NCBI GenBank assembly: GCA_964106915.2
Contig: OZ066924.1
DNA: 64,000 nucleotides
Strand: one strand, 5' to 3'
DNA from: Podarcis gaigeae
Lineage: Eukaryota
Shown here: positions 7,701 to 63,700 of the stretch, one piece after another
How positions within the stretch are numbered: position 1 is the first letter of the stretch
Layout of the letters: each line of letters begins with the position of its first letter
Translations under genes and position numbers: made by a program
The notes under the pieces: generated by a model
Databases searched by the model: none
The model's input: the letters and a program-made list of their open reading frames with translations, nothing else
What the model was told of the DNA's origin: nothing

Positions 7701-10700
7701 TATTACTTCCTCTGCTGTCTGTCTTTAGATCCTATTGAAGAGGAAGATGTAAATGTAATTTTTAGTTCAATAGAGGAAATACTGAAAGCAGCTGTTATGG
7801 CAGGAACAGACATACTGTCAGAGACATTTCAACTTTTGGTGGACTCTGCCAAGGACCTGAGCAGAAAGTTTTGTGGTTTGGTGCCTGATGGCTTATATCT
7901 TCCTGCACCACCCTTATATTGTCCTCAACCATCATTTCCTGGTGAAGTAAGTATATTTGGAAGCCATTTGATTGCTTCTTCTACTTTGTCTACACTTGAC
8001 CTGAATTAGATGTTTCTTTTGCTTTTGGATTTTGAAACCATCCTGCTTTGGGGGAGGGGTTTGGGGGGAGTCCATTAAGCTTTTCTTAGAATTCCAGCCA
8101 TAAATATAAAAAAGGGGTTAGGGTGGAGATAATTGAGTGGAGAATCTGCATTGTACTTGTCATTTTCATTGTTCATTGTCATACCCTTTATCCCCTTTTA
8201 ATTTTGCAATATTTAGGAAGAACACATCGATTTAGCATTAAGAATGGAGAGAGTTTGTCGGCAGAAGGTATCTGGAGTTGTTCAGCGAATTCTTCTCCTT
8301 TTTCGGGCAGCACACTGTTCTTTCCCTGCTGCTCAGTGGTATATTGTGCAGCTGAAACGGGCACGGAAAATAATGCAAAAGGTATACTGATGAAATTGCT
8401 TTAAACTTTTCTTATAACTGATAATAACTAACTTTTGTAGGCTGCTAAATATGGTTGTGATTTTTTATTGATTTTATTGTTTTTTTGTAAGCCACTTTAC
8501 ATGGTGAATAAATTTTATGAAATAAGTATAAGGTGGGATCTATAAAATGCAGCTCAAGTGTCAATAGGCAGGGTAAAGAGGTGCAGACTTAGCATTTGAT
8601 GGAAGGAGTATAATGAAGTGCCAGATGCACCTCTGTGGGGAGTGAGTTCCACAGCTTAGGGGCCACCACAGAAAATGCCCTCTCCCGGGCTGCCAGCCCT
8701 CAAGCCTCTGAGGGCAGAGAAAGTACCAAGTGGGCCCCCTCTGCCAATCTCAGCACTCAAGAGGGTCTATAGGGAGGGAGGCAAGTCTTTCAGATATTTG
8801 GGGCTTTGAATCTTGGTTGGAAAGGGGGGACATGTAATAAAAAGGAGAATTCCTGGTTGCCTAGATCCAGGTTTGGGGCAAGAACTCTTTGGTGTGAGAA
8901 CCCCAGCAAAGATTTAAAAATAAAATATGCAACAAAGTAAAGCATGTAATTATAGACTGTTAGACCTTTAAAATATCCCTTTCTAAGTTGCTTCCAAAGT
9001 TCCTCTCTTTCCTTAGCTTAGAAAGAGACCACACGTTTGGTAAGTAAAAAATGGCTTACAGTGGAACCTCGGGTTGCGAACGTGTTCTGTGCGGGAGGCA
9101 TGTTCACAACCCGCAGCACTGTGTCTGCGTACTCGCGTGATGCAGTTCAGCACTTCTGCAAAGCATGATTTAGCGCTTCTGTGCATGCGCGAGTGCCGAA
9201 ACCTAGAAGTAACCCGTTCTGGTACTTCCGGGTTCGGCACAGTCTGTAACCCAAAAACATGCAACCCAAGGTATGACTGTACTTACAAATTATTCAAAGG
9301 TCAGATTCATGTGCTTTTCCATATAGCATTAAGAAAAGACAAAATATAGATTCAAAAGTGATGAATGTTTCTAAAATATTTGCATAGAAACACAAAGATG
9401 GTTTTGTAGAAAACCATGCAGTCTGAGCTTGCAGCAACCAGCCCAGACCAATTTACATGTCAGAGTTCACATGGTAGAGTGATGGGGGGACAAAAAGCTT
9501 AATAAACCTTGATAACTTTTCCTCCCAAGGTATGGGGGAGTGACTTAACTAGGCCAGGCAGGACAGCATACTCTTCATACATTACCCCTTCATTCATTAA
9601 TTAAATGTAAGCAAGTTGGTAATATGAGGCTGATTATCTCATAAATCCCTTCCCAGGCAAATATAACAATTGCATGTAAATTAATGAACCACCCAGAATC
9701 CCATCTTGACGAGAAGGTTCTTGAAACTCTCCTAGTAGGGGCTTGGTGAGAATGTCGGCTTTCATTTCTTTGGTTTGACAGTGTGCCAATTCAACAAGTT
9801 CATCTTATATCACCTGACTCACATAGTGGTATTTCATCCTAATAATGTGTTTAGTTCTTGCATGAAACTTCTTGCTCTGAGATAATTTTGAATAGCTTTG
9901 GATGTGCTCCATCAATCAGACAGGTTTCTCCCCAAACAACCCAAAGTCCATAGTCTGTTGGTCAATCCAGACCAGTTTTCTGCATGCCTCTGTTTCACCT
10001 GTGTACTCGGACTCTGTGGAAGAAAAAGCTACAGTAAACAAGACCCAGTAAACAAGACCATTTTCAAACATAAAGAGAAAGCCACCTGTTGATTTGTAAT
10101 CCTTTATGTCTCTGGCCTAGTCAGCATCCATGTAACCTAGATGAAAATGCTTCTTTGGGGATATGTAACAATGTCCAGACGTTCCAGAAATGAGAACTTG
10201 GGACACATAACAACTCAGTCTTTTCAGGAACACTTGCTTATCTAAATTGTTCTCTTGTAACCTTTGCTTTTTTCCACTCTTTCAGATTCGCAAGAAAGGT
10301 GCTCTTCCCTCATTAAGTGCTCTTCCAGAAAATTTGCTTAATTATTCTAAATGTCATACAGTGTTCTTAAGGCCTACATCTTCTGGTGATCATGGACTTG
10401 ACAGTGTTTCATGTAAAACTATAGGTTTGTATCTAGAGAAAAGTGCACAGATGCTGTAAATTGTTGAAATGGAGTAAAAGGTCAAGTTGGAGTGGCAATG
10501 CCTATTCACAATGGTCCTTTTGAAACACCCACCCTTCGTTCTGAAGGTATTTGTCTACTAGTTTAGCCAATGAGCCTAGAAAATAGCAAAGACCCTTTGT
10601 TCCAACTCCTTGCCATTTTACTGATCACTTACTGTGAAAGCTACCTTTGTTCTCCTAAGACTTGAAAATGATGTACTAAATATAATATTTGACCTGTTGT

Positions 10701-16700: not shown

Positions 16701-19700
16701 GAACAATTTTGATACGCTTAACATGCTTGCAGGAACAAATTTGGTATGGGAGGGACATCAACTTCAAACTCTATCTAGATCTAGTAGCATATAGCAAGTT
16801 GTACTCCACTGTTAATGCCACAGAGGGGAATCTATATCAGAAGTCCACATCCAGTTCTGTGGATCCAAATTGGTTGCATGCTCACCATTCTCCTTAGGCA
16901 GGCAGATCTTCCTTGCTAGATAAAGGCATTAATATATAGAGAGAGATTGTGGGGCATTGCTGGTGATGAAACATTATTGCTAGTCATGTATTTACATAGA
17001 AATTATATGTGTGTTCTGTTTTGTTTTATGTTTAGAAACGACACAAACAGTATGCAAGTACTTCAGCTATTAGAACCAAACTAGAGAAAGACATCAGTGT
17101 GGATACAGGCTATTCTCCATCAGTTGGGACTCCAGTTGGTATCCAAGATGGACATGCCTTTGGCGAACCCTTTGAAAGTCTTTCAGGGTAATAATTGTTC
17201 AGTCTCATGTAAGAGCTTAGAATGTCAGGAGCTGGAGCATGATGCTAAGAAAGGCTGTCTACAGTCTGAAGTCTTCAGTTCTTGCATTTTTTCCCCATGT
17301 ATAGGACCTTACATGAAAAGCAGTCTGAGAAGAAAGAAATTAATTTCAAGGATCATCCTTTGACACGTGGTGTGGAGATTGAAGAAAGAAATCCTGTCAA
17401 ACTTCTGACAGAAGAAATAGGGGGAAACATATCAAATGAAGATGTGACATCTGAAAATGAAGGTTAGTTAAATTTAAATTAATTAAAATAATTCTTTCTT
17501 TTTAACGCAGGTGGCGCTGTGGTCTAAACCACTGAGCCTTCTTGGACTTGCCGATCGAAAGGTCGGCGGTTCAAATCCCCACAACGGGGTGAGCTCTGTT
17601 GCTCTGTCCCAGCTCCTGCCAACCTAGCAGTTCAAAAGCATGTCAAAGTGCAAGTAGATAAATAGGTACTGCTCCAGCGGGAAGGTAAACGGCGTTTCCG
17701 TGCACTGCTCTGGTTTTGCCAGAAGCGGCTTAGTCATACTGGCCACATGATCCGGAAAAACTGTCTGTGAACAAACATTGGCTCCCTCGGCCAGTAAAGC
17801 GAGATGAGCGCCGCAACCCCAGAGTCATTCGCAACTGAACTGTCAGGGGTCCTTTACCTTTTAATTCTACAGATATCCACATACATAATATTACGTTGCT
17901 ATTTTACACAAATTTTAATACAATACCTTCCTGTAACAAAGACCTATATATCTGCTTAAACTAGTAAAACTGCTAGAATAACACAAAAGCCTGCTGATTC
18001 TCCAGAATTCATACTCTAATATTCAGCCTCTAGCTATGCTTTTTATCTATAGTTAAAGCCTAAGCCAGTTGCTTACAAATAGTGGCTCTCACAGCACTTT
18101 CAGGTGGTCCCTGCAACCATTATGAAAATATAAAACGTGGCTGAGAGCAATTGGAGGCACATATTGTTCGTATGTCAGTTAAAAGGAAGTGGAATGATGG
18201 AAAATAAAGGGCAGAGGAAGCCCTTGGCAGTTTCTAGTAAATGGTAGTGGGGGGTTAGTGTCTTTTTCAGAACGATATGCCCCTGCTCGCAGTATATCAC
18301 TGTACAGTAGGTTTGAGGGGAAGGCTTGGGAGAGCTGGAAGGAAAATAGGAAGTGATCTTTATTCTTCCCCACTCCTGAAACACCCTATCCCACAAGCAG
18401 CCAGAACAGTACTACCAGGTTCCTGCTCCAGGCCTAAGAAGAGTACTCTTCTTAGGATATTTTGTAGGAGATCCCACTGGCCTTGAAATATACACACTTT
18501 TAAGGGATAATCAGTTGATAATCTGCATGGAGCAGGGGTGTTTACAGCTGGGAAGGGATGGCAATAGACTGGATTGTTCCCATAGTGATTTAGTTTCTCT
18601 TTATGTGCCTTTTATTTTAAAGAGCATGAAGATCCGTTTGCAGTTTCAAAGAGCCCTACCATTTCTGTCAGCATTAAATCGGTACAACAAAAGAAAGAGG
18701 CAAGTTACCACAGCAATGAGTAAAATATATTCACTTGAACGTGCACATTCTCTTATGGTTGCCAGAGGTCTCTATGCAGGTTGCATTGCATGCCCTAAAG
18801 CTTGCAAACAAATAATACCTAAACTTCAAAGGCTTTGCTCTTTTCTGCCTGTTGAGGCTCAGTCTGTTTCCTGTGTCAGCTCAGAGCACATCCTCCTTGG
18901 GATCTTCACCTTACCTTCTGTTTTCTCTCTCTCTCTGGATATTTTCCATTTAACCGTATAAAACCAAAAAGCTCATTTTTTACTTCAGCAGCTCCTCCTT
19001 TTCCCACTCCACCCCCACCATCTTTTTCTGCTCCTTCTGGGTCTTGAAGCAGGTCTTAAGAATTTCCCCACCACTAGTAACAAAGAAAACTAGACACATT
19101 TCTAGTGCTGGGCACTCATCAGCGGAAGCCGTAAGGATACAAGCAGTTACCATTGGACTGTATAGATTTAAATAAGATATTTCTGTAAGGCAATTACATG
19201 CTGACATGCTCAAATGCACTTAAAAGCCTTTTTTTTAATTACAGCAGCCGTCTGTATCAGATGTTGAATATCCACAAGAAGATCCATTGACGGAAACATT
19301 GGAGGAAAAATTTACCAAGCTGGATAAGTGAGAGAAATTATATCCTTAGTTTAAAATAAAATAAAATTGTGCTTTAACTATTTTCTAGTTTAAGGGAAGT
19401 TTAGATACCTGACATTAAATTTGTCATCAAAGAAAGAATGTACTACTTAAAAGTGCAGTTTAGTTTTATCAGACTCCTGCAGATTTACATGAATCTAAAC
19501 TTGATTTTTTGAAAAAACAACCTAGCACAAAAATTATTGGAAGGGTGCTCAAAAGCCTTTTTGCTTTGGTATCTTGGCCATTGGTCACTTCCTTGTTTGC
19601 AACGGCTCCAGTCCAAAAAAATCCAGTTAATTTGTACAAAGAACTGTATCTCGTGGAGATTCCCTTCCCTCCTCTTCCCCTTCCTCTGATTTTATTAGAA

Positions 19701-22700
19701 CTTTCAGTAATTCTATTTCCTAGGACACCATATTATGTCACTTTTCTTCAGATGTTGCGGTGAAAGTTGCAGTCCTTCTGTTTGTGCAAGGACTTCCACT
19801 CTGCCAACAGAACTTCCTCTCCCTGTGTCTCTCCCAAAATTGTTTTCAGAGCTTTGGCAGTGGAGTGGGTGGCAACCTAGAAGAGAATTAGGGAGGTCAC
19901 AGAGGAAAAGATGGAGGAGAAATTCAGTTGCACTAGTCTGAACAGATCTACTTCATTTGATCCAACAAAGCAGGCCAGCTTTTATGAGCCTGTGACATAA
20001 TACAGACATTCCACTCCCACTTGAATATGTGGGGCCAGCAAGCACCCTCTGAATTGGCTGATTCTGTTTTAAGTAGGATCAAAGGAATAAAGAAGTATAA
20101 CTTCTCTTAAAATAATTGACATGCATTCAAATCAAGATACCTAACATGATGAAAAAATCCTGATATATTTTCTCTCTCTACAGTATTTACCATACAAAAT
20201 GTGAGACAACTCCCAGTAACACTCCATGCTCATTTTGCCCTGAAATGAAGTCAGAAACTACTAGGTAAAAGAAACTAAGAAGCTCTTTTTAAATATTAAG
20301 CATAAGGTCATCTGTCACAAGTTGAAGTTATAATTAAAGATATGTTGACTGCTTCATACGTTTTGCAACCCATTGTCTGGTACTGCATACAGGTAGTGGC
20401 TGAGCAATTCAATTTCCTTTTGAGCCTGGATTCATAAGGGTTCAATCAGATAACCTGCTTTTCAATGTCAGTGGCACTCAAGGCAGGGGATTGAGTCTCC
20501 CAGGCCACACATTCTAAACAGGCATTATCTGCTTGATTTTAGGTTGGTAGATGTTTAAGGAACTGCTAGGTATTCTAGGAGGTACTACCAGTACTAAATT
20601 CCAAATTGAACTCCATTTCCTTGTGTCAATACTCATTTAACATCTCATGTCTTATCAGCATTAAGGATCAAGTATCTTAAGTACAGCCTACTTTTTCTGT
20701 CTTTTTCACAGTGGTTGATTAAAGTAGCAATTTTGTAGATAATATGCTTTAAAGAAAAAACTATTAGCCATTTTGAGCCCATAAAAGACAGCATGGTATG
20801 ACATATTGATTGCATATTTATAAGCACATTTCTAATTGTTAATGAGAAAAATCACTAAAAATATTTCCTTGTCTACTGTGTTAAGTATGCAAATGACAAG
20901 CTGTCAGACAAAACAAAACTCTTAGTCACATCTTTATATTCCTCTAAATGGCCAAAGTTACTGTCTCCAGCAGTAGAAAGATTGGGGGGCAAACACTATA
21001 TCAGATTAGGAGTATTTATGTGAAGTGATCAGAATCTAGGTATTTTACAAGTTAGTTTGTCTCAGGTATATTTCCCCTCTGCTTCTGCAGTGTACAGCTT
21101 GCGGTCTCAGATGAACGGGCTTCTTTCACTGCAGTGTCAAATGTTCCTCCAAGTAGTCCTCTTGTTCCAAAGAACGAAGAAGTTAACACTACTTTACCGA
21201 CGGAACAACCACCGAACGTTTCAGATGCTGTTAGGCAAATGCTGCAAGATGAAATGTTTAAATTGGTTCAGGTAAAAAATATTCATTATGAAAAAGTGCT
21301 CCAGATCCTGCTAGAATTCTTCTGGGGGACATGTCTGAAACACTTATAGCAAAAGAAGCTCCTTGTTTGTTTGTGTACATTTCACTAATTCATCATGTTG
21401 TTCCTCAAAGGGGGTTACATATGGTACTCGGGCAGCTTCTGGGGCAGACACAGATGGGGGTTCAAATACTCGCCTCCCCACATATTTGTTTGATGCAGGG
21501 AGGGAGACTGTGGCTACTGTCCTTGCAATACTTGCCTGTGCTTTGTGCATTTGCATGAATCCTATGGGATCAGGGTTCCCTGTAGGCACTTTCAGCTTTA
21601 TGCACATAGGAACTTCTTTCCAGTGCTCTGCTGAATGTTAAGAGGTTGGGTTAGAGCTGGCGGCAGCCCACTTGGGAGTGGGGCGAATGGGTACACTCCA
21701 CACTTTAAGTACAGTCAGACCTCGGCTCCTGAGGTTTTGGAACGTTTCGGCTCCCGAATGCCAAAAGCCCGGATGTAAATGCTCTGGTTTTCAAACGTTT
21801 TTCAGAAGTCGAACATCCGACGGGGCTTCCGCTTGAGTGCAAGAAGCTCTTGCAACCAATTGGAAGTGGCGCCTCAGTTGTTGAATGTTTTGGAAGCCGA
21901 ACGGGCATCCGGAACGGATTATGTTTGACAACTGAGGTTTAACTATGCACATGAAGGAGGCGTTTTTGAGCAGTGTGGGAGTCTGATGTGACTTGAGATG
22001 ATCTGTTGAGCAAGACTGTACTGTTTCATTTATTCATATATTGGTAAAATTCTGCATCTACAATAAATTACTTGCAATAATTGCACAGGACAAAACTGTG
22101 CTTGTGAAATATGATGTTCCTGAGCAGAATGCTTGGTATTATTCAGCTGGTATTATTTCACTAAAATATAGAGACTTTTGCCTTCCTAGATAACTGCACT
22201 TTGCTGAGTCAGTGCAATAGAATAAGAATATTTTGAAGTCGTGGGTTTTTTTAGTCATGATTTTGGTTTATATTCTAGCTGCAGCAGATCAACTTTATGA
22301 GTCTCATGCAAGTAGTAGGATCATCATTTGCCAACTTGCCAAATATGCCACAGCAGATGCAGCAATCACAGTCCTTTCAGTTGGGAAGAAACCAGGCTTC
22401 AAACACTGGCAGCACTGATGTCAATAGGACTCCTCCAAAACTTGTAACGTATGACTTGCCAGTAAAAGAGATGACAACTCTAGAAAACAGTAGTGATGTC
22501 ACTAAGAAAAACACCAGTTCTCAGGAGAAAAACAGCTTGCATTATCAAAGTCATAATGGAGATACTTCAGTAAGTAGAGAGTTGCCCTTTTAAATGTAAA
22601 GTTATAATTCATTTAGGGTCTTCATCTACTACATTAAGCCAATGTCTCTTCACCTTGTGACAGTATATTTTTCTCTCATTTAGAATCCACTGCACATCAG

Positions 22701-25700
22701 TGATTCTTCAAGCTTACCAGAGGGTCAGACCAATGGAACAAGCCAGATTCCACCATTTCAAAACTTGCTTCATCAGGTTCCAGCCAGACCATTACCTTTA
22801 TTATCAGTTTCCCTAAATGCTGAGAAGATACCTAAGCTTATTCCAGTTTCAAAACCCGTAAATAATGCAACTGGGCTTCCTTTGCTTAAACTTAAACCTG
22901 ACTTTCAGTTCCAGCCACTCAATATCTGCCCAGTAAAAACCCCAAAAGTTTTCAATGGACCATTCCCAAAACAAAGAGAAGCCTGGGGTGTACCTCCTCC
23001 TCTGGTGAAGAGTCCTCAAGGTGTACAGATGCCAGAGTACAAAGGAACAACAGAACACATAAATTTGAACAACTATGATCAGGCAGGCCGTTGGTCAGAA
23101 ACTGTAAATAAGGGTCATTCCAATCATGTTAATTTGGATGAATATGAGAAAAAAGAAAATATGGCGCCTTCTCAACACCTTCATGCACATCTAAAGGCAG
23201 AGAAGCCACTGGTTGACAATGGGATTCCCTTGCATAAAACTTACCAAAATTTTGCACCGATTCCTTTGCTTTATCTGAAGCCCTACTCACAATACAAGCA
23301 TCCATCCACTATGCCGCCTGCTAAGCTTTCGGAAAAGAACTTTGATTCCATAGACCCCTTTTCGCAGACAGGAATGCCATTGCTTTACACTAATTTACCT
23401 CCGCTCACCAAGGTAATTGATTCTATATAAGCATGCATAAAGATATCTTTTGAAAGTTTTTCTGTTTCGGTCACATGATTTGGTTATATCCATTCTGAAA
23501 TTTGCTTCAGATGTTTTATATTTTTTGTTGTTTTTCGATGTTATGCTTTTTATTTTCATTTGTATTTTTATTACTGAACTGTTTGCTGCTGGGCATCCTT
23601 TGGAGGATATCAACTTAAGAAATAACAAATATTTTAATTAAATAATTTAACCTTTCCTTTAAAACAGGGATGGGGAATTGGTGGCCCTCTAGATGTCGCT
23701 GACTTTGACTCCCATTATCCTTGAGCAATGACCATGTTGGCTGTGACTGATGGGAGCTGGAATCCAGCAACATCTGGAGGGGCACAGAGTCTCCATCTCT
23801 GCTTTAAAAGAATTAAGTATGCATAAGAATTAAGTATGTCTTAATAAACATTCCTCCTTCCTTTGATCGTTGTTTTCATTTACATTAGTGGAATTTGAAT
23901 GTCTTTCAGTATTATCAGAGTCTGACCTCTTTTGCTTTTCAAAGTCATCATCCAATTTGGGAAAAATACATTATTCACATAATTATCAAATTCTGCTTTC
24001 TTTCCTAAACAGTTTCAAACGCCAAAACTCATCCCACTTCAGAATCTCATTGCATTTGAGCAAAGCCGCCAGGTTGTCCAAGTCCCCCACATTGGGGTTA
24101 AAGACCATCCTGAAAAGATTCAGTTATTAAAAGCTAACTTTAAACCGCGTGAAGTGAGACAAGATATGAATAATAAAAAAAGGTAAGAACAAATAGTACT
24201 GATCATAACAATCTATCTAAATGTGATCATATCAGTTTTGGTGAACTTAACGTAAAAAAAAGGCAGTGACTATGGGCTGATAATAAATTACAAAACAAAT
24301 ATAATTTATCCCTTCTAGTTGTAGTGGTTCAGAAACGGGTTTCTTCTGCAAAATCAGAGGCAAGACAGCAAGCTTTAGTCTGGATTAGGATCCACAGAAA
24401 CTTCATAAACTCTGGTTTGCTGTCTCTTGTTCCTTTTAGCCCACCAAGCTTAAGCATCAGTCTTGTTTCTCTTTTGTTATTTTACATGTTTTGTTTTAAA
24501 GAAGGAGGCTTCAGCCCCACAAGTTCCCTGCTTCTTAAAAGTGTGGGAATTGTCTCTGATCCCTAATGAGCCTGGAGAGGAACTACTCACAGTAATTCTC
24601 CTATCAAATATTGAAACATCCACAGGAAAAAGTCAGCGCTCTCCGGCAACAGCAATGCGGCTTCACTCCGTGAAAGAAGCAGTCAATTCAAAGCACCGCG
24701 CCACTCACCCCACGTCGCTCCGGATCCCCAAAACAGGGTTTCCCCGCGAGTAGGGGAGGCGCAAGAGGTGCCAGCCGAATCCCAAGTTCACAGGCTTCTC
24801 CCGCCTGTGATTTCTATGGGTCTCCGCCTTTGCCGTGGCAGTCAGACCCTGCTTTTCACGGAGCAAGTTCCTCCCGATCGGAGGAGCTCCGCGATTGACG
24901 GAGGCGCCAACCCGGAAGTCCCATGCAAAACACCACAGGGAGACGCAGGCAGGGTCTTGTGGTCCAGTTTCATGGTCATTTGAGTGTGTATAACTTGCCC
25001 ATTTTTGTTTGCTTCTTTTAAACATGCTCCTGAGACACAAAATTTATTATTTGTATCTCTGTTGTACTGTAGTATTAAGTGGTAAAAGTAAATAAAACAG
25101 CCACTTCCCAGCTGCCTGCTGCTGTTTTCAGATGAGTCCATCTCAGGGAACACCTGGACATATTAAGAGGCTTACCAGATGGTATTTGTATTTTCTGCGT
25201 GTCCTTTGACACTAGTGCCATCCCTAGGTTGCTCAGTTGATGGACTTTGCTATTTGCCTAAATACAAAGAGAGAATTATCAGAATGTTGTTAAAATGCTA
25301 ATGTAATAATAGGCAGAGGAGGCGTGTCAAGAAACAGATCAAAGAGAAGCAAGAAAGGAAGAAAGCAACTGTGACTTTTCAACAAGATGGCTCCGTTGTT
25401 TCAGCTGATATTGTAGAGCAAGCAAAGGTACAGTGATACAGCAATTCTGACTCATAATTATCTTGTTGACTGTCTTATTTGCTTTAATGAGCACTTCCCA
25501 GCTGTCGGTATTCAGCAACAGGGATTCAAGCACATAGTGGGAGATTTAGATTTGCACAATTGAAGTCTCTTTTGCCCTAGTGCAACAAATCCACTATAAA
25601 AAAAGAAACAGGCTTTTTGTGGTTAGGAAAGTAACGAGAAAATTCACTGAAACGTGTGGGATGAATGAATTACTAACTTGAAGACCCTGTGAGGAAATCA

Positions 25701-26086: not shown

Positions 26087-29000
26087 TTTATACCCCGCCC
26101 ATCTGGCTGGGTTTCCCCAGCCACTCTGGGTGGCTCCTAACAGAATATTAAAAACACGATAAAACATCAAACATTAAAAACTTCCCTAAGCAGGGCTGCC
26201 TTCAGATGTCTACTAAAAGTCAGATAGTTGTTTATTTCCTTCACATCTGATGGGAGGGCGTTCCACAGGCCAGGTGCCACTACCAAAAAGGCCCTCTGCC
26301 TGGTTCCCTGTAACCTTACTTCTCTCAGGGAGGGAACTGCCAGAAGGCCCTCGGAGCTGGATCTCAGTGTCCGGGCTGAATGATGGGGGTGGAGACGCTC
26401 CTTCAGGTATACTGGGCCGAGGCCATTTAGGGCTTTAAAGGTCAACACCAGCACTTTGAATTGTGCTCGGAAACGTACTGGGAGCCAATGTAGGTCTTTC
26501 AGGACCGGTGCTGTGTGGTCTTGGTGGCCACTCCCAGTCATCAGTCCAGCTGCCACATTCTGGATTAGTTGTAGTTTCCGGGTCACCTTCAAAGGTAGCC
26601 CCACATGTTCCTGCCTATTCTGAGTAGGAGACAAAGACAAACTTGGATGCCGACCTGTTAAAGTTAACTCTGGATAAAGAAAAAGGGAAGGCATATAGAC
26701 AAAACAGCTCAGCCAACACAACAGCCCAGCTGGGAAACCCAGCCAGATGAGCAGGGTATAAATAATAAAATTATTATTATTATTATACTCTGACAGAACA
26801 ATTATAAGCCTCTATGAAGTAAGCAATGTTAACATACATATTTTTTCAATTGTGTATCCAGTAGATCTTCCAGATAGGATGGACTAATCAGAACAAAACC
26901 TATTTAATTTCCCTCCCTCAAATGCTTCCTAGGTATATTTTAAAACAATGAAGGGAATTACAGAACCAAATCGAATTTAAAATAATAATTTGTAAGAAAG
27001 TTATAGAAAGCCATGTATGATCTCTCAATTGAAAGGAGTTGCACACTTATCTGTTTCTTACTTAAACATACTACATTGAAATAATATTAGTATCTTGAAA
27101 TATGTTAGCAGCAGTTGAACCTATATGAATTTAATCATACTTATTCTTCTGTCAGGATAATCAAACAGAATTCAGCTATGACCTCAATGATGGTGGCTCC
27201 TTACTGAGTGAGTATTTCAACAAAACTGTTAAAAATGTAAGATCCAGTTATGACCTGTCCATTCTATTGAAATATGAGGTTGTATCCAACTATGTCCTAC
27301 TTAGAGTAGATCCATTGAAATGAATGAATTTAGTCATACCCGTTAATTTCTATTGGTCTGCTCTGAATAGGAGTAAGATGGAACACAACTCATGGTATTC
27401 GTCTTGAATGACAGTGATATTTAGCATGATCTAGTAGATACAAAGGGACGCAGGTGGCGCTGTGGGTTAAAGCCTCAGCGCCTAGGACTTGCCGATTGAA
27501 AGGTCGGCGGTTCGAATCCCTGCGGCGGGGTGCGCTCCCGCTGCTCGGTCCCAGCGCCCGCCAACCTAGCAGTTCGAAAGCACCTCCGGGTGCAAGTAGA
27601 TAAATAGGGACCGCTTACCAGCGGGAAGGTAAACGGCGTTTCCGTGTGCGGCTCTGGCTCGCCAGATGCAGCTTTGTCACGCTGGCCACGTGACCCAGAA
27701 GTGTCTCCGGACAGCGCTGGCCCCTGGCCTCTTAAGTGAGATGGGCGCACAACCCCAGATCTGTCAAGACTGGCCCGTACGGGCAGGGGTACCTTTACCT
27801 TTACCTAGTAGATACAAAGAACTTTGGAATGAATTGTCAGTCATAACTTTACATGCATTCACTACTTTTGTCGATTCATTTTGAAATAAATCACTATTTC
27901 CTGGTATCAGTTTCCTATCTGTAGAAATGTGATTATATTTATAAGAGCAGGATATAAGAGCAGGATTCACCTAACGCACCTACATATGCAAAAATGTTTC
28001 TCTAATCCTCTCTATTGAATATGAATTATGTTTTCTTCATTTTTAATTGTACAGCTGAGACAATGAAATTAGCAAAAACTATTGAAATAGTTTTCTTCCC
28101 CTACTAATTTTGATGTGGATAGTAATTATGTATTCCTCCCTCTTAGACCCAGAGGCAGTTACTTCTTCAGCAGGACTACATTACTTAGCTTCTGTAAGAA
28201 AAAGAATTGCAGATCTTCAAGATGCCTCTACAAATACAGATCCTGGTAAAATAACCTGCAGGAAATTGTTGTGTTGTTGCTTTTTTAGCATTTGTAGCTA
28301 AATTGCTTTCCTCTAAATTAATTTACATTGGATTATCTCCTAGCAGCACAATCCTATGCATGTCTACTCAGAACTAAGTCACATTGTGTTCAGTGTGACT
28401 TCTGGGTGTGTTCAGGATTACAGCCTAAGAACTGTGGAAGAAATAGCAATCAATAATTTTTGCAGTGTTAAGCATTGTGTATGAAATTTGTCCTCTTCAG
28501 ACCAAGTCCTTCCACCAGAAATAACCCTCCTTCAATAAGTAACAGAATGTTTTGTTTTGCCTTTCTGTTGATTGATCTTGATTTTACTTTTTTTCTTACC
28601 AATCAAGTTAATAAATCACATCAAGATGTACAAACTGTCTCAGATGAAATAGTTTCTGAACCTGATAAAAATCAAACAATCACCGCTGCTTCTGCGTCTG
28701 TAACAGGTGTGCTTCCTTTCAGTCTGTTTGTATGAACTGTTGGGTTTTTTGCTTGCTTGTTTCTTTTTCAAATGTGTTCATTCTGGGTATGTTCCACTTT
28801 TCCTGAAGTCTCCTGGGATGACTAAAAAATTGCTCTGGGTGTTGGAGAATAGTGTGGGACATGCTGCAGGGGACTAACCTTTTTTGAGGATTGGCCACAT
28901 TGAGTGTTTGCTGCCCCTCCAAGGACCATATGTCAGGGCATGCACAAATCTGTGATGCCGTTGTTAGGAGAAGAAACAGGAACTCAGGAATGCAAGACTA

Positions 29001-44219: not shown

Positions 44220-47200
44220 NNNNNNNNNNNNNNNNNNNNNNNNNNNNNNNNNNNNNNNNNNNNNNNNNNNNNNNNNNNNNNNNNNNNNNNNNNNNNNNNN
44301 NNNNNNNNNNNNNNNNNNNNNNNNNNNNNNNNNNNNNNNNNNNNNNNNNNNNNNNNNNNNNNNNNNNNNNNNNNNNNNNNNNNNNNNNNNNNNNNNNNNN
44401 NNNNNNNNNNNNNNNNNNNNNNNNNNNNNNNNNNNNNNNNNNNNNNNNNNNNNNNNNNNNNNNNNNNNNNNNNNNNNNNNNNNNNNNNNNNNNNNNNNNN
44501 NNNNNNNNNNNNNNNNNNNNNNNNNNNNNNNNNNNNNNNNNNNNNNNNNNNNNNNNNNNNNNNNNNNNNNNNNNNNNNNNNNNNNNNNNNNNNNNNNTTA
44601 TTGCTTTTATTGCTTTTAATCCCTTGACGCCGGGAGTTGGGATTTCCCGGCACACATTCCATTGCCGGCAATGAGACGCACCGCGACCGCCAGCGCCAAG
44701 GGGTTAACATCCTTGCAAAATCACATATTAAATTGTACCCGTGTCTTTTAACTCTTATTGATATATAAAATTATATGTACAAATGAATCATAAAGCTACA
44801 TAAAAACTTGGCAACAATAAAAAGGATACACACAGTACATTCCAAAGGAAAATTAAACTTTATGCTAGATAAAATCTCTTCTATGTTTTTTATTGTTTTT
44901 GTTAGAACTTTCTACAAAAAGGTGTATAAACGGTTAAGAATTTCTATCTACAAAATGGTTTTTTTTTCCATATTGATTACATTACTCAGTGTACATTTTA
45001 TTATAGACTGACATTTAAAAGCACATAAAATCATTTTACGTAATACGCTGCGAAATACGTTGACTCCTCCTCCGCCTCACCCCTGAAGTGCCTCCTCCTC
45101 TATCCTCCCCATCACTCTCATCATCCTCTGTCTCAGCTGCATTGTTTTTAGGGCTGCCTCCTCCGAGCAGCGAGGTAATAGCTTTGTTGCGAGCATTTGT
45201 GCTAGCTGACACTTCTCCGTCTTCCTCTTCTTCATCAGGATCCAAGTGTTCCATGAGAAGTTTGAACTAAGAAAGGATATTGGAAAGAAGATTAGGCGCC
45301 ACCTTAAAATGAGTTATGAAAACAGAAAAGAAAAAAAGGAAGGAAGCCTTATGGGAGTAACCTTAAGACAATTTGTGGAGTACACTATCAATTTAGTAGC
45401 ATGTGACACATCTTTTCTTGGAGAAAGCAAGGCTTGTTATCTTCCTTAATAGGCCTTAAAGGGGCAAGGTTTTAGATTTCTTACATATTAGAGCCTCAAT
45501 GTTGGCAATCGTGGGGAAATTTTGCTAGCACCACACCAACTCAAACCCAAGAGGGAGTCTTTTGACTCTTTGCCTGCTCTGTGGTCCATTTCTGGGCCAG
45601 GCCCATGCATGAAATTTGCATTAGGTAGAAAAATCCCAGTAGAATGAACAGAGACTCCCCTGCAGCCCATAATGCAGATTGAAGGCATGGGGCACCCTAC
45701 AGCTCATCCAACAGCCTCTAATTTGCCTAATTCTGTGCATTAGATACACATTTATTCAACGAGCAAACTGAAGAGGGCAACTTGCAGTGGAAGAAGTCAG
45801 CATACTCCATTCCTCACCTCTGAAGAAAAAAAACAATTTCAGCCTGCAGCCACTGCTCTTCATATTTCACCTTCTAAATAACAAAAACTTAAAAGTATTT
45901 CAGAACAGAGTTCAAACGTTTTTTAAATGAAGTTGATAGGCAGTAAAATTGTGCAGGCTCTCAATACTTACATCTAAGTACTGTTTGACTATATTCCTCT
46001 TCACTTCATCTGTGAGCTTGGAATGAGCCATATCACTTCGAAGGAAGTCTAGCGTCTGTTTTGGATGGAAATGAATTCCTGCCTTCCTGTTTATTGTTTT
46101 ATCGTATACTTTTGCCGATTCAGAGGGAGAGTATTTCTGAATTTTACTGTTATCAAGAAAACAAAACGAATGCTTGAAGTTAGTAAGATTTCCACACATC
46201 CTTTGAAAGTAGAATCTATAAGCAATTCTCCTTAGTCCCTTAGGTCAAAATTCTTAGTGTTATATAAAACAAACATTATGGCACTAGGTTTTGCTACATG
46301 CATCTGCATTATGCAGAATTCACCCAAGTTTTGAGTTCAATCCGTAACAAAACCTCAATAATGTGATCACAGGGAATGATCAGATAAAACAGATGTAGGA
46401 AACCTCAAGCCCACCAGCAAAATGTGGCCTTCCAGTCCCCAGGCCTCTCCTCAGCCACACTCCTCGCCAGCCTTACTGCATGCCTTCCTTGAGAGCTTTC
46501 GCTTGGCTAAAATGCACCTGAACTGTGATAATAGTTCTTGTTTGCCTGAATAAAGGTTGGAGAGATGGGCTGGGTGTACAAGAGGAAAGATCTGACTTTC
46601 GCATGGCTGGAATGTAGCCTATTGTAAGAGTCACATCTTTTGCTCCAAGTTTTGCTTCCAGCCCCACCCATCACTGCCATGCACACCCTAGAAGTTGCTC
46701 GCAGAAGAATGCAAACTGAAAAGCTTCCCCACTCCTGAGATAAAGTAAGCAAGACTTGAATGCTCCTCACCTGTCAGAAAATCCACAGAGGTTCTTCAAA
46801 TGCTGTTTTAACATCAACAGCAACAATATGCCCTGGGAAACATTTGCAAATTCAATGAGAGGAGCTGAATTGTCTGGCAAACATTTCATGACAGCATTTA
46901 TATCATTCTCTTCATCAGTATCTGAATCAGACTCTGCACGTTTTCGCAACTTTCGGGGTTTGTGAACTTCCTCCTCACTGTCGCTGTCACTTTCACTGTT
47001 ACTTTCACTCTCACTCTCTTCATCAGATGATGGCTTCCTTTCTTTTTTATATTTCACCATAGACTGAAAGAAAATGGCAGGTAGTTTAGAAAAATAGCAA
47101 ACACCATTATCAGTATATTATAAAAAGGGATTTGAAGACCGTTCTAATAATAATAATAATAATTTTTTATTTATACCCCGCCCTCCCCAGCCAAGGCCGG

Positions 47201-50200
47201 GCTCAGAGCGGCTTACAAGCAATAATAAAAACAAGATGAATGATTACAACTTAAAAACAAAAATAAAATACAACATTAAAATAATGGAACATTAAAATAT
47301 TAAAATGTAGCCTCATCGCAGGAGAAGGAAAAGACATGTAGTCATTCACCAGTATGAACTATCAATCAAGGGAAATTAAGTGGCGAGATTTTGGGAAAGC
47401 AGACTCAAAGGATGAACTACACGCACATCTAAGCTATTAAATATTCAACTCAGAATACAGTCAATGCATCCTACAAGACAAAGGACCGCTTAACTTGATT
47501 ATCAGCAGCCCCTTACATGATTGCAGCATTTCTTTTTTAATGTATGGGTGGTAAATGTGCAGTGGGGGTGCAGGGCCCCAGCTGGTAGGCACAAGATTCG
47601 TGGCACATTCAGAAAACAGCAATAGGGTTCATTGTCACTCTCCCCCCCATTGATTTTTTTTCTTTTCTCCCCCCCCTCCCTGCAAAAACAGTTTCCCGTT
47701 ATTTCATATTTTCTTACAAAGGAATGTGGATTCTGGGCCTCTGACAAGAAGTAGTCAACTATGGACAGATACTTAAATCTACAAGATGGGTTGTGTTTTG
47801 GCTTATATTTATTTATTGTTTATTTATTTAATAAAATTTATTTAAAAAAACCTGCAAAGTGGTTTACCAAGACAAAACAAAGAAAACACCCACAGCGATA
47901 AAATGAAGAAAAATCGGCTGCACGCAGGGGATGGGGTGAAGGCAAGGCAAGGCCTAATCTACTCAGCCTAGTCTCATTTTCTTCACATAGACAGACTTTC
48001 CAGGACCCAGGAAGCCCAGTGGAGTATAGGGCAGTAGGGTGGTTCATAAACTATTTTTTTAAAAAGTGCCTGCTCCCAAGGTCTTATCTTACTAAACTAG
48101 GGATTATATAGCTATATCTGAAATTTCATGCATATTAGTTAATATCTTGACCCAGCTCCACTGAATTGAAATTTCAGCCCTCAGGACATAGGAAAACGGC
48201 CAAGTAAACAGCTATTTTTGTGGAAGAGGGAGGTAATGTTGTATAATATAATTCCACTTACCTCCTTAAATGACTGGAGGAGGTTACTACCAGAAACTGA
48301 TAATGTGATGTCTATATGGTGCATTATAAAAAGTGGCTCTTCCTGGGTTTGGTAAGGAAAACAGGCTAGATTGTCTGCTATGTACAAAAGCTGATTCACC
48401 TCCGTTTTCTGTGGAAGTAGAAGAAAATAATAATAGACAGATACACATATGCAATCATTTCTGTGCTCAATGAGCTCCATGCCACATTCTTGCTCCTTGA
48501 ATACAGTATCCAGTGAGTTCCACCCAACATTTTTTGGGGGAGGGGGGATTTCCACGTGTTTCATCGTGTGTGCCGCAAGGCCCACCACCATTGCAAGACC
48601 TGGCCCCTCAAGATTGGTAGGCTCAGCCTTGTCCCAATAGATTCTTTTTTGGGGGGTGGCTGAAGACATCTCAGCCCTACAGAGTTGGCACATTTAGACG
48701 GCATGGAGGAGATTCCGTTGTGCAAAGGCAAAGTAGTGGATTCCCACTACTTTGAATACAAACCATTATGCCTATTCCAAGTTATGAGCATGAAAAGCTC
48801 TTGCAATTGTAGTCACTGAAACATCACAGAAGGAATGGATTCTGTCTCCTGGTGCCTCTACCCACTCCATCTATAAATACAGGGGCTGTGCCAAAAAAAA
48901 AAACCAGAGAGCTCTTTTGGCATTGGAAGGAAGCTAAGATGAACCAGGAAAGCCACAAGCATTCTGGGAAGAGAGAGGGATGGGTTTCACTCCTGTCAAG
49001 GAGAAGAAGTGAAAACTCAAATCTGACCAAGCAACTGCCTTGTTAACCCTATGGATGGAATCCCGCATTTAGGAAAACCTATAAATATTATTGAATCAAG
49101 TTTAGCACTGTGTAGGGGGAATGCATCTTCATTTTTGTTAGCAATTCTCCAGGCCAGCCTCCCCCAACCTGGTGCCCTCCAGATGATTTGGATTCCCATC
49201 AACCCCAGCTAGCATAACCAAAGGTTAAGAATGATGGGAATTGTAGTCTAAAACATCTGGAGGACACATGATTGGGGACGGCTGCTCAAGACAATGAAAG
49301 AAATAAAAAAAATGCCAAAATTCAACATGTCACTACTTAATTTCTATGTAGCTATTATACTGCAACTTTTATACTATTTTCAAAACCAAATATCCTCTCC
49401 AAAGTAGATCATACTTCATCAAAAGCACTTTTTAAAAAGAGTATAGAAAAGGTCTGCATTAGACTCACAGCTGTGTCATCAAAGAGGTTGAGTAAGGAAA
49501 TGAGAAAGGCTCGTCGGTGTTGTCGGTTTCCTCGGATCATGGAGTAAAGGTGTGAGCACAAAGCACTGCTGGATTCATCATGCCTAAAGCCCCTCACAGG
49601 ATCTTTACGGCAAGTGTTGATTGCTTGCTGCACCTGGTATGACATCTTCATACCAGCCACTGCTTTCATCTGAAGTTAAAAACATTTATAAGTCTTCATT
49701 TTGCTTAGGACAAACAGAAAGAGGTTGCCACAAAGATTTGAGCTCAAAGTTACCTGTTTCAGTTTCCCCAATAGCTTTCTACTGAACAATTTACAAATCA
49801 TTTGCTTTTTTATAGCAAACATGCACAATTTTGACACATTGGTATACATGTTGCAGTTAGGGGGATTATTTTGTTTTTAATATTTGTAGACTTTCTAGGC
49901 CAAGGAAGAGAAAATATATGTGTGTTTTCCAAAGCTATTCTAGTTGCAATGCAAGCATTTTTGTTATACTGTGAATTGAGGCAGAGTTCATATCTACATT
50001 CCCAGTTTGTTAACCACAATTTAGCAAGCCAGGATTGCGCATCAGGCATCATCTCTTCCCTGTGCACAGATCTTGATAAATGTAAACTACAGTTGGTCAT
50101 TACTTCCAAAACAGGATTTAACGCCAGATCAAATTGTACTTGAAGATCCTAGTCAGTAAATACATTCAACCACCGTTCCCCATTTTACTAGCAGGTCTGT

Positions 50201-57700: not shown

Positions 57701-60700
57701 TAGGCGTGCTTCCGCTAATGGGGCCTCTTGCTGCCGCTGTGCCACTGGCACACGATTTCCGTTCTCATCGTGGGGCTCAACTCGAAGTAACTCTTTCAGG
57801 TTAGCGGAGTTTGTAACCTGAGGCATTTGTAACTCAAGGTACCACTGTACTGCAGGAGTATTGTTAAACTCTCTTGAAAATATTGAAATCCATTTAACTT
57901 ATGTTTACTTAATCAACTTCAATCCTACATACATGCTATACTAGAATAGTTGATCAGTTATAGGGAACCTCACTAAAAACCCAGAGTATTGTGCTACAAA
58001 CTGCAACATTTGCTTGAGCACTACAGTATGAGAACTCACAGACTTTAAAGAATAAACCAACACTTTGGGACAGAGTATAATCACCAATCATGTCAAGGAC
58101 AATAACAAAATTAGAACACATCAGATACAACTCAATTTATCACAATTGATACATTAGTCAATGGGAACAATAGCACTCTCATACCACATCTGTAATGTTC
58201 AATATTTTCCTGGTCATTGCTTCTTTGTCATTATGGGGGGTTGGAGTAAACCACAGCTTCTGGAATGTCTCATTTACCAGTTTCTGGAAATAAAATGGAT
58301 AGATATTGATTAGGTAAAAGTAGCTTTCCACATTCTCTAAACTACCAACAAGAGTCTACAAAAAGCACAATCCACTAGACACACATCACGAGCAGTTCAA
58401 CTTGAATGGAAGGGAAATCAGCACCAATATAGCCTCAGTCAAGCAACCTCCACCCTGCTGAAGCAGCAACCACCCACTGCTCACAGGAGATCCAAACACT
58501 GCTTTTGAGAAGTGCTTTAATCCCTGCTCAGTCCCACTGTCCCGGCTGCACAATCCTGTTACTTGCTGGAAACATGGCATGCTGCTAAGGAAGGATGTCA
58601 GCTGAATGGGTATGAGGACAGTGTTTAATCCTGCCTTAGCAGCATGCCATGACTTCAACAGATGGAAAGGTGGGCCTGGTTTGAGGGAAATGGCCTCACA
58701 GGCAAAACTGGAAAGGCTGCCAACCAAGATGGCCCCACAGGTCAGAGGCTGCTCACCCCTGTAGTAAATGATTTGTTTACTGTACCTTAATGCCTTCTTC
58801 ATCGTTGACTCTGCGAATCATTTTCACACACATTTCTGTAATTTTGGGAAATGTTGGTTGTTCAATGCAGATATCCCTAAGAATCTTTATGACTCTTTTT
58901 CTGACACTAATACCAGTATCCTGAAGAAGCAAAAGAAAGAAAAAAGTTTAATATTGGGGGGGGGGGGGGGGAATCAGCATGTTACCCATCTTACAACACA
59001 TAGGGCAGCTATAAGCTGATTAGCAACAGATAACTAATATAATGTCTTTTAAAACATAACCACACAGTACCATGGTTAATAAGCTAAAACACTTAGTGTA
59101 AAATCCTTACAAATGGAGAAAAAATCTTCTTAATGCTCACTATTGCCATTTGAGATGCATGTCAGAAACTATGTTTCAACAGAGGTGAACAGAGGACCAT
59201 CATATTTATTTTCATCATAAAGAGCTATGTAAAAGTTGAACTTATAAAATGTTAGAATTTAAAAGTAGCCATACCAGTATTCGCTCAATCAGCATGTCAT
59301 AATACTGTTCAGCAAGCTGTGGTCGACAAAGCACAAACCGACCAAGTAATTCCACGGCTGCTTCTCGTACACTAGTGGAATTGTCCATCAACCGTCCATG
59401 GACACCACGTTGCATGTCAAGCTATAAGCAACAAGCAAGAAAGAAACACAAAGTGAGGGAAACCATAAAAAGATGCTTGTGAGAAAAATGTGTGTATGAT
59501 TACAGAGTGTTTTCTTTGTTTACCCTGGCTAGAATGCTGGGATCTACAGCAACAACCTCAGACAAACACTTCATGGCTTTTGTTCGAACAGCAATTGCAT
59601 TTTCACCAAGCACACGCAGAATCTAATAAGAAAAAAAAAAAAGGCATTTTATTTGCTTTTGAAAAGAAGCACGCAATGTTTAACGAACAAAAATGAAGTG
59701 AGGAAACATGCTAGAATTGAAGTAAAATGAAAAACTAGCTACCAGAAATCTAACATAACCTCACCAAAGGGGCACTCAGTCAAACATATTAATTGCACCA
59801 CCCCATTTCACTCCATGTGAAAGGTCCACATGTTTTGCCACAATTCAGTAGCCAAGCCATTATTTGAAATAGCCAATATTCCCCTCCTTCAAATCCTTGA
59901 ACATGTGCACACTTGCATATGTGGAGGACTGGGGGCAAGAGGTGCCTTACGTCTTGCTGACATTTGAAACTGGCAGAAGCAGAAAGTGTTTGCCTGCTCC
60001 AAAGCCCAGCTTATTCCAAAAGGAGACTGGGTAGGGGCACCCTGTGTCCCACTTGATTCACTTATGGGGTGGGCAGGTGCATCCATTACCTGTGACACTT
60101 CTCAAGAATGATGTGAATTGAAGACCACTCCAGAGAATATTACGGCTGGCTGAACTGTAAGAGGGTAGGATTTTCATTGGCCATCACAGAGAAAGCACTT
60201 CCTCCTCACCAAAGATGCATGATTTTGGGGCCAGGAAAATAGACTATCCTGTCTATACCACTGTTGGGCAGATGCAGCAGTGCATTGGAACTCACCACAG
60301 TGAGCCTTGGCTGCTTGTATCAAATATGGTCAGGAAGAAGGTAAAGAGAACATCTAGGCCACAGCACGGAGCCTAGGTGAGGGACATTTGCCCCGGTAAG
60401 TGGATTTGTGGAGGGCGTGCCCCTTGAAATGAATGGAGGCTGTGCAATAGCAATGTTAGGTGGATTGTGCCCAGAGTGATATAAAATATGACTGCTTGCT
60501 TGTTGATAATGCCTTTGTTAAAGAGGCATCTAAGTATGTGTTTTCTTTTGATTTTTTTGTGATAATTTTGGATCAAGTCCTCCATAGTAGCTATTTCATT
60601 ATTCTTTCTGCTTTTTTAATCCACTCTGGTCAAGAACCACAATGAAGGCCAAAAAATTAAACAAAGTAGGAGTACGCTTCTATTTCTGGAGGCCTAACGT

Positions 60701-63700
60701 GGTGACCCATTCAAACATGCTTGCATTCCTATTAAGTATTAATATAATCAAGCTACTAAATTACGACATTCATCATGGCAGTACCATGCACTGCAAGCAA
60801 ACTACTAAAACTATTTTCTATTTTGAGTTATTAAGCTGCTCTACTATGATGTGTGAATGTACACTTTATGAGGTAATATCCTTAAAATTCAAGAATTCAA
60901 ATAAAGTATATGTAGGCAAAGGACCATTATCCTTTTAAGACACCTTTTTAACTTAAGGTTCTTGTTACAAAAATGCAAAGATGAAATAAAGAGTTCAAGG
61001 AGGTGTGAAATGCATGCAGGATAAAGAAAAATGTTGTGGAATTGATACATAATTATGGAAGCATGTGGTGTTACCACGACCTATTAAATACCTGCGCTTA
61101 ACAATGAACAGATATTGCACACTACCGCATAAGCGTTTGGAACCAGGAAGCCAACTGTATTTCACTAAGACTTCTGGCACAGTTTACCTGTGTCAAATAA
61201 ATATCGAAGCTCTGGGCAAACGGCCTCATAGAGGCCAAGTAGCGAACAATCAAGCAAGCATCTTCATAGTCCACAGTATCAGAATTCATCCTGTAATGAA
61301 GTGGTAGAATATTACTTTAGCATTTGCTTATCAACAGAAGAATATGGCAATACATGAACACCAAATGTTGTTTAGTAAATAAAAATGAACTATCTGTGGA
61401 ACTCACCTTAATGTACTGAACTGAGAAGGTGCCGTTTTAATGATGTTGCGAAGAAATTTTTTGCGACTTTCTGCTCTGTGCATAATTTGTCCCGTTGTCT
61501 CAATTTCTTTTGCATGGTGTGTTCCTTCAGATGAATCATCATCCTTCTGAGTTTTCATTGCTTTCTCAGTCTCCATAGTAGTGTCCCGAAACCACTGTGC
61601 TATATAAAATTTCCGAGAAAACTGGTGCAGCAGGAGAGAGTGTGGGAAAATAAATCCCAAAAAGGACAATGTCAGAAAGTGTTTCATTGCTTCTACTGTT
61701 TGTTGGATATGCTTATTTAGTATATTTTTAATTGATGAAAGATGCCTTGAGTATTTTTACAGCAACAGAAAGGAGGGATATAGATTTTCTTCAATAAGTA
61801 AGACACTAGTATTTTAGAATATATTGATCTAAGTTCTTGTTACTGGAAATGAAGCAGGGCATTTCCATATTCCAAGCCAACTACATTTTGAATTACATAT
61901 AGCTGAATTTATCAACTGTATTTTGAGTTGCATATAGTTGAATTTACTCCAAAGTCATTTTCATGTACAAAGTCATTTTCAGTTTGCAAATACACTTTAA
62001 CTCCTGGATTATTTACACTACAAAACATGATAAAACAATTATAAATTGATTTTTAGAGTCTATGATAAATGAATGTGTTCCTCAACTGCTTATTAAATGT
62101 GACCATCATAAAAGTGTTAGGGCCTACTCTTCACCTACCCAGAGTGCCTCTGTCCATGATAATACAGAACTGCTTACATGATAGGAAGCAGAGTCAATGA
62201 CAAATTGAACCTGGGGTCTTCTGAATGTAAAGCATGTGCTATGCCTTGAGATGTGGTCCTTCTCCTTCATGGGGAATAGACCACAGTTGTCATTGACTCT
62301 GCTTCCTATCATGTAAGCAGTCCTGCATTATCATGGACAGAGGCACTCAAATGTGGTTCTGTCATCTCTTTCTTAGGTTATATTACAACCCCACAAACTT
62401 TAAAAAGAAAAAAAGTATTGCCAAATTGGAAGAACGAGCATTTTTATACTGAACAGTGGTGTAGTGGTAAACTTTTAGTGCAGGAGCTTGTCAGGACTGC
62501 CCCCAAACTTCCTAACACTGGGTGTGTATGAAGCAGAAAACAGTTTATAGTAAAAAGAGGCAATTTGTATGTAATACTAAAACACTGACATGTAAAGCTC
62601 AGCAGGGAAAAACACTAGAGTAATACAATTTGCCAGTTTTTTGCCTCATATCATAAAGCTACAAGTAACATGAACTTTATAACTGTTGGTATCAATCTCT
62701 ACATAACCTTTTAGATGTCCATACATATATATGTTTAACTTTTGATGCCTGTGTATCTAACTTAGTTGCAGTTTCAAAGTTTCAAAGGCAGTAGCCTTTG
62801 TGCCACCTCCTCTATTGGTGTGCTAAGGGAGAAAGGCTTAAGGTCTCCCAAGACCTTACTCACTCAGCTTAAAAGGAAACAAGCCAGCACATTTGCAAGG
62901 TAAACAAAAGACCTTCCTTTCCAATGCAGCACCATGGTGTGTGGGTGGGTGTGCGCGTGCATGTGATTTCTTTCTGCAAACTTTGGCCATGCCCAACATG
63001 GACATACCACCCTCAAGGGGTTGGCCCACAGTTGATGTGGCCTTCAAGACAGAAAGGGTTAAGCAGACTTTCACTTAAACAACTACAACATACCACTAGT
63101 GATGCATCAGTTTCTGTATTTTCTTCCAAATAATCTAACAGTGCCTTTTGCAGTTGCTGGATTTCATCATCCCCTCCTGAGACCTGTAATACACAATATA
63201 TTTTAAATAAAATTCACACCCTTTCCAATATCAGAACACACTAACTTGGATCAATTTGATCTAAACACACTTTAAAGTAAACAAATTACAAAACACACCG
63301 GGAGCATCAATATGTCACACACAACATGTTAACACACAACAAAAATAAAAGGTATCAAACAAAGTCGTCATACGCACAATCAATTAGTAGCAAGTGTGTG
63401 AAACACCATCTCCCAGCAAACCTGTTGGGCTGCTCCTTCTGCAGCAAATTTTTATTTTGCCATGAAATTAAATGTTGTCTCTTCCCCCTCACCCTCCACC
63501 TCCCACATCACCCCAGCTAACAGCTGGATGCTCCCAGAGGCAACTGCCACAAACTTATATTTTAAGGGTAAATTAATCAAAATGAGAGGTCAAAAGCACT
63601 CTTGATTTTTGAGAGTAACACAAAGAAGAAATCTCACAATGCTATTTTTCTCATTAGTGTTTTGTATGGGATGTTACTCCAAATATTTTATGGACACTAA

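Follow-up and report, generated by a model that had tools for sequence, protein, structure and literature searches.

We describe an inverted repeat of 92 nt, bounded by TTAA (44616-44707), in intron 46 of NIPBL on the minus strand of a 64-kb stretch of Podarcis gaigeae DNA (hereafter, the window). Tentatively, and with somewhat less than even confidence, we interpret this repeat as a likely old, conserved intronic RNA stem-loop that would help to set the competition between the weak acceptor of exon 47 and intronic cleavage.

Results

NIPBL and its two 3' ends

The 3' part of NIPBL lies on the minus strand of the window: three of eight translated stretches matched the Pfam domain Nipped-B_C, and one matched Nipped-B-like protein chains in PDB (E 2e-38). 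In human, isoforms A and B have residues 1-2683 in common and then continue with 121 (A) or 14 (B) residues (PMC5372497, PMC3923681), and each of the two is conserved among vertebrates (PMC5372497). Reading through the exon-46 donor at 45080, where intron 46 starts, yields 14 codons and a stop (45036-45080, minus strand, 45 nt), in agreement with the residue counts for isoform B (PMC5372497, PMC3923681). The gene, strand, intron and two-isoform logic proposed in an earlier, sequence-only reading of this DNA were thus borne out. Of the exon-47 coding part (44175-44540, minus strand), only the last isoform-A codons, which finish at 44175, are readable. The start of this part, computed from the 121 human residues, is inferred; the acceptor, the pyrimidine tract and the branch point are all covered by a run of N at 44220-44597. 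Assuming the human tail length, the inverted repeat ends about 75 nt before the exon-47 start at 44540, a distance within the 60-80 nt that had been anticipated for the isoform-A acceptor.

Of human intron 46, isoform B retains 211 bp (PMC4100155, Table 2), and the human exon-47 acceptor has been scored as weak, at 0.41 (PMC4100155). The two isoforms are co-expressed, with a similar pattern across tissues (PMC5372497, PMC3923681). The isoform-B-specific tail (45036-45080) itself holds 5 CpGs in 45 nt, compared to 4 in the 186 nt upstream, and this CpG retention suggests constraint beyond that on the protein.

Geometry and composition of the inverted repeat

In the transcript, the 5' arm of the stem corresponds to 44690-44707 and the 3' arm to 44616-44633 (minus strand), each of 18 nt including the outer TTAA, and 15 of the 18 positions are complementary as DNA. 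The TTAA tetranucleotides are outermost at both ends (44616-44619 and 44704-44707) but count as a single observation because TTAA is its own reverse complement, so that one TTAA together with an inverted repeat implies the other. Among the 14 pairs inside the TTAAs, three differ between the arms, all by transitions. The 84-nt interior is 65.5% GC and contains all 9 CpGs of the 92 nt, with a CpG observed/expected ratio of 1.0, against 0.25 for the window and a GC content of 18-29% in five flanking blocks; the GC- and CpG-rich block stops sharply at both TTAAs. The description of a CpG-rich 92-nt block with TTAA on both sides and fold-back arms is therefore accurate.

Taken separately, these properties are not exceptional. 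At least 9 CpGs occur in 338 of the 62838 segments of 92 nt across this stretch, so the CpG density is not locally unique, and 12 inverted-repeat clusters within the 64-kb window have arms that pair as well by the same measure. It is the combination that is unusual, given that each of six further foldbacks inspected in the window carries only 0-2 CpGs in 121-221 nt. A perfect 14-nt palindrome (44660-44673), which is predicted to form the apical hairpin with a pair probability of about 0.7, is present as reported but is weak as a special feature: a palindrome of this kind arose in 1648 of 200000 shuffles, and seven occur in the window.

Predicted fold

The segment 44616-44707 out-folded all 200 shuffles on either strand, with z of -2.65 on the minus and -3.02 on the plus strand, and is thus predicted to fold better than its composition alone explains. 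When the flanks were included (44598-44720), z was -1.89 on the minus strand, where 10 of 200 shuffles folded as well, and -2.41 on the plus strand. In the pairing prediction, the inner 13 pairs have probabilities of 0.95-1.0 and the four TTAA pairs only 0.31-0.58. Over the 18 positions, the minus-strand RNA contains two G-U pairs and one mismatch, exactly the counts given previously for the NIPBL transcript, and the plus-strand RNA contains one G-U pair and two mismatches. The further claim that the G-U pairs favour the transcribed strand had to be abandoned: all arm differences are transitions, a split of two against one G-U has P=0.5, and the z values give the transcribed strand no folding advantage. 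An Rfam scan of 44598-45100 returned four matches, all far below the gathering threshold (E 0.79-8.6).

A rival 7-bp hairpin, GCCGGGA/UCCCGGC, had been proposed to compete for the 3' arm. A fold forced to contain this hairpin costs only 0.8 kcal/mol (-45.6 compared to -46.4 kcal/mol), and the predicted pair probability of the hairpin is 0.04.

Possible conservation of the stretch

We sampled 20 31-mers from 44598-44800 as a probe, for which 24 sequencing runs were listed. All 20 words were found in 14 of the 24 runs listed, from three organisms (A-C), with six of these runs only guessed to be RNA; seven of the rows may be the window's own source, and organisms A-C may be close kin. Another six of the 24 runs listed contained 8 of the 20 words (0.40); these are RNA runs that carry chicken gut or gut metagenome labels and come from three studies. 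The remaining four of the 24 listed, one with a share of 0.10 and three with zero, were left out of the argument. From the run labels, we infer that the six runs contain chicken host transcripts.

By simulation, 8 of 20 words correspond to about 96-98% lizard-chicken identity if the identity is even, or to near-identity over about half of the stretch, in a part that the count does not locate; an identity of 90% gives at least 8 words with P 0.003. Lizards and birds split about 280 million years ago, and 96-98% identity is far above the neutral expectation. If the runs with a share of 0.40 are indeed chicken host RNA, there is some support for constraint on 44598-44800. The word count favours presence of the element over its absence next to a near-identical flank only 1.1-2.7-fold, and counting does not place the shared part. 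Accordingly, of the three causes to which the undecayed CpGs had been attributed, namely selection, protection from methylation or recent origin, constraint gains some support from the 8 of 20 words.

Constraint on this stretch, the retention of CpGs and the internal palindrome would also be expected of a conserved linear or DNA element, whether sites for RNA-binding proteins close to the 3' splice site or a transcription-factor site free of methylation, in which case the inverted repeat would be incidental or a relic. The equal folding of both strands is compatible with such an element, as is a screen of conserved 3' UTR fragments in which structure was not the general reason for conservation (PMC13420535). 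A 13-pair helix at p >=0.95 with internal G-U pairs and its transcript position beside an alternative terminal exon speak against a linear or DNA element, and we consider this explanation unlikely.

Possible transposon origin

Two properties of the repeat match those of piggyBac MITEs: a TTAA target-site duplication on both sides (44616-44619 and 44704-44707), and terminal inverted repeats (TIRs) of 14 pairs inside the TTAAs, within the range of 12-19 nt (PMC5381638). The terminal motif does not match. In piggyBac elements, CC[C/T]T or C[C/A/T][C/A/T][T/G/A].. directly follows TTAA, with the first C at both ends. Here, the first three C are present at one end, which deviates at position 4. The other end also deviates at that position and is missing the first C, and at both ends the CCCTT motif is shifted inwards from the TTAA by one base. 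The first C is highly conserved in piggyBac TIRs and is their most conserved base (PMC5381638). The previously noted likeness to piggyBac ends with TTAA and CCC..GGG holds for the TTAA, and the motif is off by one base at both sides. An origin from a piggyBac- or Kolobok-type MITE is possible but doubtful, and the proposed function does not depend on it.

An ordinary, lineage-restricted TTAA-type MITE (piggyBac- or Kolobok-like) that landed in a conserved intron, with the fold a by-product of its TIRs and the CpGs a sign of youth, would explain the sharp bounding of the GC- and CpG-rich block by both TTAAs and the folding without strand preference. TTAA followed by three C is rare, occurring at only 11 sites when both strands of the window are counted. 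The window abounds in other foldback elements and in young SINEs rich in CpG, and piggyBac MITEs of about 100 bp, with TTAA duplications and TIRs of 13-14 bp that are sometimes imperfect, are known in corals, including one family with four terminal C; imperfect TIRs also occur in some active MITE families (PMC2872659). Several observations run counter to this explanation. The CCCTT motif lies one base inside the TTAA, and one end is devoid of the conserved first C (PMC5381638). The three arm differences imply age, and the intact CpGs oppose neutral ageing: neutral MITEs should have arms that match almost perfectly when young and CpGs that have decayed when old, so that imperfect arms combined with intact CpGs, in a stretch that seems constrained, fit selection better. 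No second copy of the repeat was seen within the 64-kb window, a weak test confined to this one window. Absence of the element from the chicken-labelled runs would require that the 97-nt upstream flank be 98-100% identical (P of at least 8 words 0.14-0.54; at 95% identity, 0.016). Finally, organisms A-C hold every sampled word, though they are perhaps close kin and seven of the rows are perhaps the window's source. On balance, we regard an ordinary MITE as improbable.

The window is rich in other repeats. Four Sauria-SINE-like copies of about 360 nt were detected (4795-5156, 27443-27804, 17505-17861 and 40276-40627), three with tails of ACCTTT repeats and the fourth with a similar tail; these match the Sauria SINE, a repeat found in lizards and snakes (PMC13295347), and so make a squamate host very likely. 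The copies at 4795-5156 and 27443-27804 share 97.8% identity and have many CpGs (up to 12 per 92 nt), and are therefore young. The six foldback, MITE-like elements with 0-2 CpGs each are located at 5956-6091, 6139-6273, 23681-23785, 49171-49268, 58567-58657 and 62142-62348, and the first, third and fourth of these look related. Three CpG-rich patches (9046-9219, 21731-21839 and 24626-24966) reach 8-10 CpGs per 92 nt; self-BLAST found no second copies of them in the window, and they are probably other young repeats. Further interspersed repeats with 72-84% identity were found at 2251-2613/26057-26422, 13878-14088/30147-30232/57628-57841 and 28516-28712/29525-29714.

Poly(A) signals and the isoform choice

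The AAUAAA at 44889-44894 (minus strand) is the likely signal for the described 3' end of isoform B (PMC4100155, Table 2). Counted from the donor at 45080, 211 nt end at 44870, 19 nt after this hexamer, assuming no indels relative to human and bearing in mind that the figure of 211 nt may derive from a reference transcript rather than from mapped 3' ends. A spacing of 19 nt from AAUAAA to cleavage is normal. This agreement suggests that the described isoform-B poly(A) site is conserved, about 163 nt before the inverted repeat. With isoform B ending that far upstream, at 44870, the repeat would be absent from the described isoform-B mRNA. A further upstream AAUAAA lies 79 nt after the donor (44997-45002, minus strand).

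Next to the stem, AUUAAA (44615-44620, minus strand), which overlaps the 3' arm by five bases and is predicted to be unpaired at 0.40-0.99 per base, and AAUAAA 3' of the stem (44606-44611, minus strand), unpaired at 0.67-0.98 and a candidate distal poly(A) signal, are both found where the sequence-only reading had placed them. In a switch along the lines of that reading, these foot-of-stem hexamers would serve as a second, more distal isoform-B site, with cleavage in a zone overlapping the exon-47 branch point, and folding would pick between cleavage and splicing. Both hexamers do exist, and the fold containing the rival hairpin costs only 0.8 kcal/mol. Cleavage typically follows a hexamer by 15-30 nt; counted from 44606, this distance would place it 35-50 nt upstream of the inferred exon start, close to the usual branch-point zone. 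RNA contigs also run past 44870: every word is present in six runs guessed to be RNA, and a share of 0.40 in four RNA runs with chicken gut labels, of which two were poly(A)-selected; these contigs, however, may represent unspliced pre-mRNA or DNA. Other evidence speaks against such a switch. The described isoform B stops about 163 nt before the repeat, earlier AAUAAA hexamers (44894 and 45002) had been overlooked, and both predicted folds leave the AAUAAA at 44606-44611 unpaired, with the surroundings of the hexamers unchanged by the rival hairpin. We rejected this hairpin as a switch on its predicted weight of 4% and the unchanged exposure of the hexamers. With AAUAAA open in both folds and the rival hairpin at 4%, a two-state switch acting on the poly(A) signal gains no support from the predictions. 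The hexamers at the foot may nevertheless mark a second site that reaches into the branch-point zone. In addition, a table of intronic poly(A) sites includes NIPBL only at a far upstream site (PMC5928244, four supplementary files), a weak point given that the table covers differential sites only. Coupling of poly(A) site use to splicing through the fold, as first proposed, thus appears quite unlikely.

A second, AT-rich inverted repeat was noticed at 44813-44828/44882-44897 (16 nt, 88%); through it, the AAUAAA that likely serves isoform B would pair with a U-rich tract located 42-57 nt past the inferred site of cleavage. Such a second repeat arises in 8 of 400 shuffles of 44712-45035. Masking of the AAUAAA by this repeat was not accepted: the hexamer is paired in a 101-nt folding window and open in the 201-nt and 321-nt ones, and z is -0.95.

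Discussion

Under the interpretation that we tentatively prefer, a conserved stem-loop in the intron, transcripts that escape the poly(A) site at +211, and only those, would form the stem just before the exon-47 acceptor. Folding would take about 80 nt out of the linear intron and leave, at the 3' foot of the stem, the branch-point region and a single-stranded tract rich in A. Either the stem itself or a protein that binds it would then favour or delay commitment of the 3' splice site to exon 47 as opposed to intronic cleavage, so that the stem would be a fixed tuning element rather than a two-state switch. Splicing is known to compete with intronic 3' processing, and last introns show an enrichment of constitutive intronic sites, in passages that do not name NIPBL (bioRxiv 10.1101/2025.08.19.671063).

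Several lines of evidence support a conserved stem-loop: the fold beats 200 of 200 shuffles with 13 inner pairs at p 0.95-1.0; a CpG observed/expected ratio of 1.0 coexists with differences at 3 of 14 arm positions, whereas the six other foldbacks have only 0-2 CpGs; six of the 24 runs listed share 0.40 of the words (about 96-98% identity if even); and the acceptor next to the stem is scored weak in human (0.41, PMC4100155), with both isoforms conserved in vertebrates (PMC5372497). The interpretation is weakened by the plus strand, which folds equally well, as in any DNA inverted repeat, by the word count, which favours presence of the element just 1.1-2.7-fold over a near-identical flank alone, by the lack of a matching Rfam family and by the chicken origin of the runs, which is taken from their labels. 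A more far-reaching version, in which a piggyBac- or Kolobok-type MITE was inserted before the lizard-bird split and kept nearly unchanged, with the stem foot and distal poly(A) signal at the exon-47 branch-point region setting the NIPBL A/B ratio across amniotes, appears very unlikely.

The literature searched yielded no published description of the inverted repeat, although coordinate-only tables of structure screens may list it, and no functional data on the repeat or on an RNA structure controlling the NIPBL A/B choice. PMC13420535 mentions NIPBL in unrelated passages only, and NIPBL does not appear in the supplement of PMC11310781, in 12 of the 20 files of PMC7941889 or in the main text of bioRxiv 10.64898/2026.10.24.761493. 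The repeat is best regarded as a probable conserved stem-loop in an intron, situated at the alternative terminal exon of a gene that is sensitive to dosage.

Cornelia de Lange syndrome involves mutation of NIPBL, a dosage-sensitive cohesin loader. A conserved stem of 13 bp next to a weak last acceptor is a small candidate for A/B control and a place to seek non-coding variants; if a MITE-derived stem sets the A/B ratio, variants there could alter the dosage of the full-length cohesin loader. If derived from a TTAA transposon, the stem would extend the known exaptations by a case based on RNA structure, whereas a young MITE would be ordinary.

In composite terminal exons, donor read-through with constitutive intronic polyadenylation competes with splicing to a last exon further downstream (bioRxiv 10.1101/2025.08.19.671063). 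The secretory and membrane forms of IgM are of this type, and NIPBL isoforms A and B are another example. In being short, non-coding and flanked by TTAA, with C-rich TIRs of 13-14 nt, the inverted repeat resembles the coral CMITEs (PMC2872659) and human MER85 and MER75 (PMC4625184, PMC2268245). The CMITEs, of about 100 bp, include some with imperfect TIRs or four terminal C, a precedent for one end here. Unlike piggyBac MITEs, the NIPBL repeat has 84 nt between the TTAAs, CCCTT one base inside and one end without the first C. The ancient repeat UCON29, classified as Kolobok in Repbase and as piggyBac-like in a UCSC table (PMC5753468, PMC4625184), belongs with Eulor and X_DNA to the short inverted repeats of amniotes that cluster in conserved non-coding regions and for which exaptation has been suggested, a likeness by description only (PMC5753468, PMC4625184). 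In CSB-PGBD3, a TTAA-flanked, piggyBac-derived intronic sequence takes part in the choice between two host mRNA 3' ends, as proposed here (PMC2268245). CSB-PGBD3 does not act through a fold but relies on an acceptor, a transposase ORF and a poly(A) signal that it carries itself (PMC2268245), whereas the NIPBL repeat has neither an ORF nor an acceptor and the neighbouring AAUAAA is situated outside the TTAA. By analogy, CSB-PGBD3 is nonetheless the nearest precedent for a piggyBac element that decides between two 3' ends.
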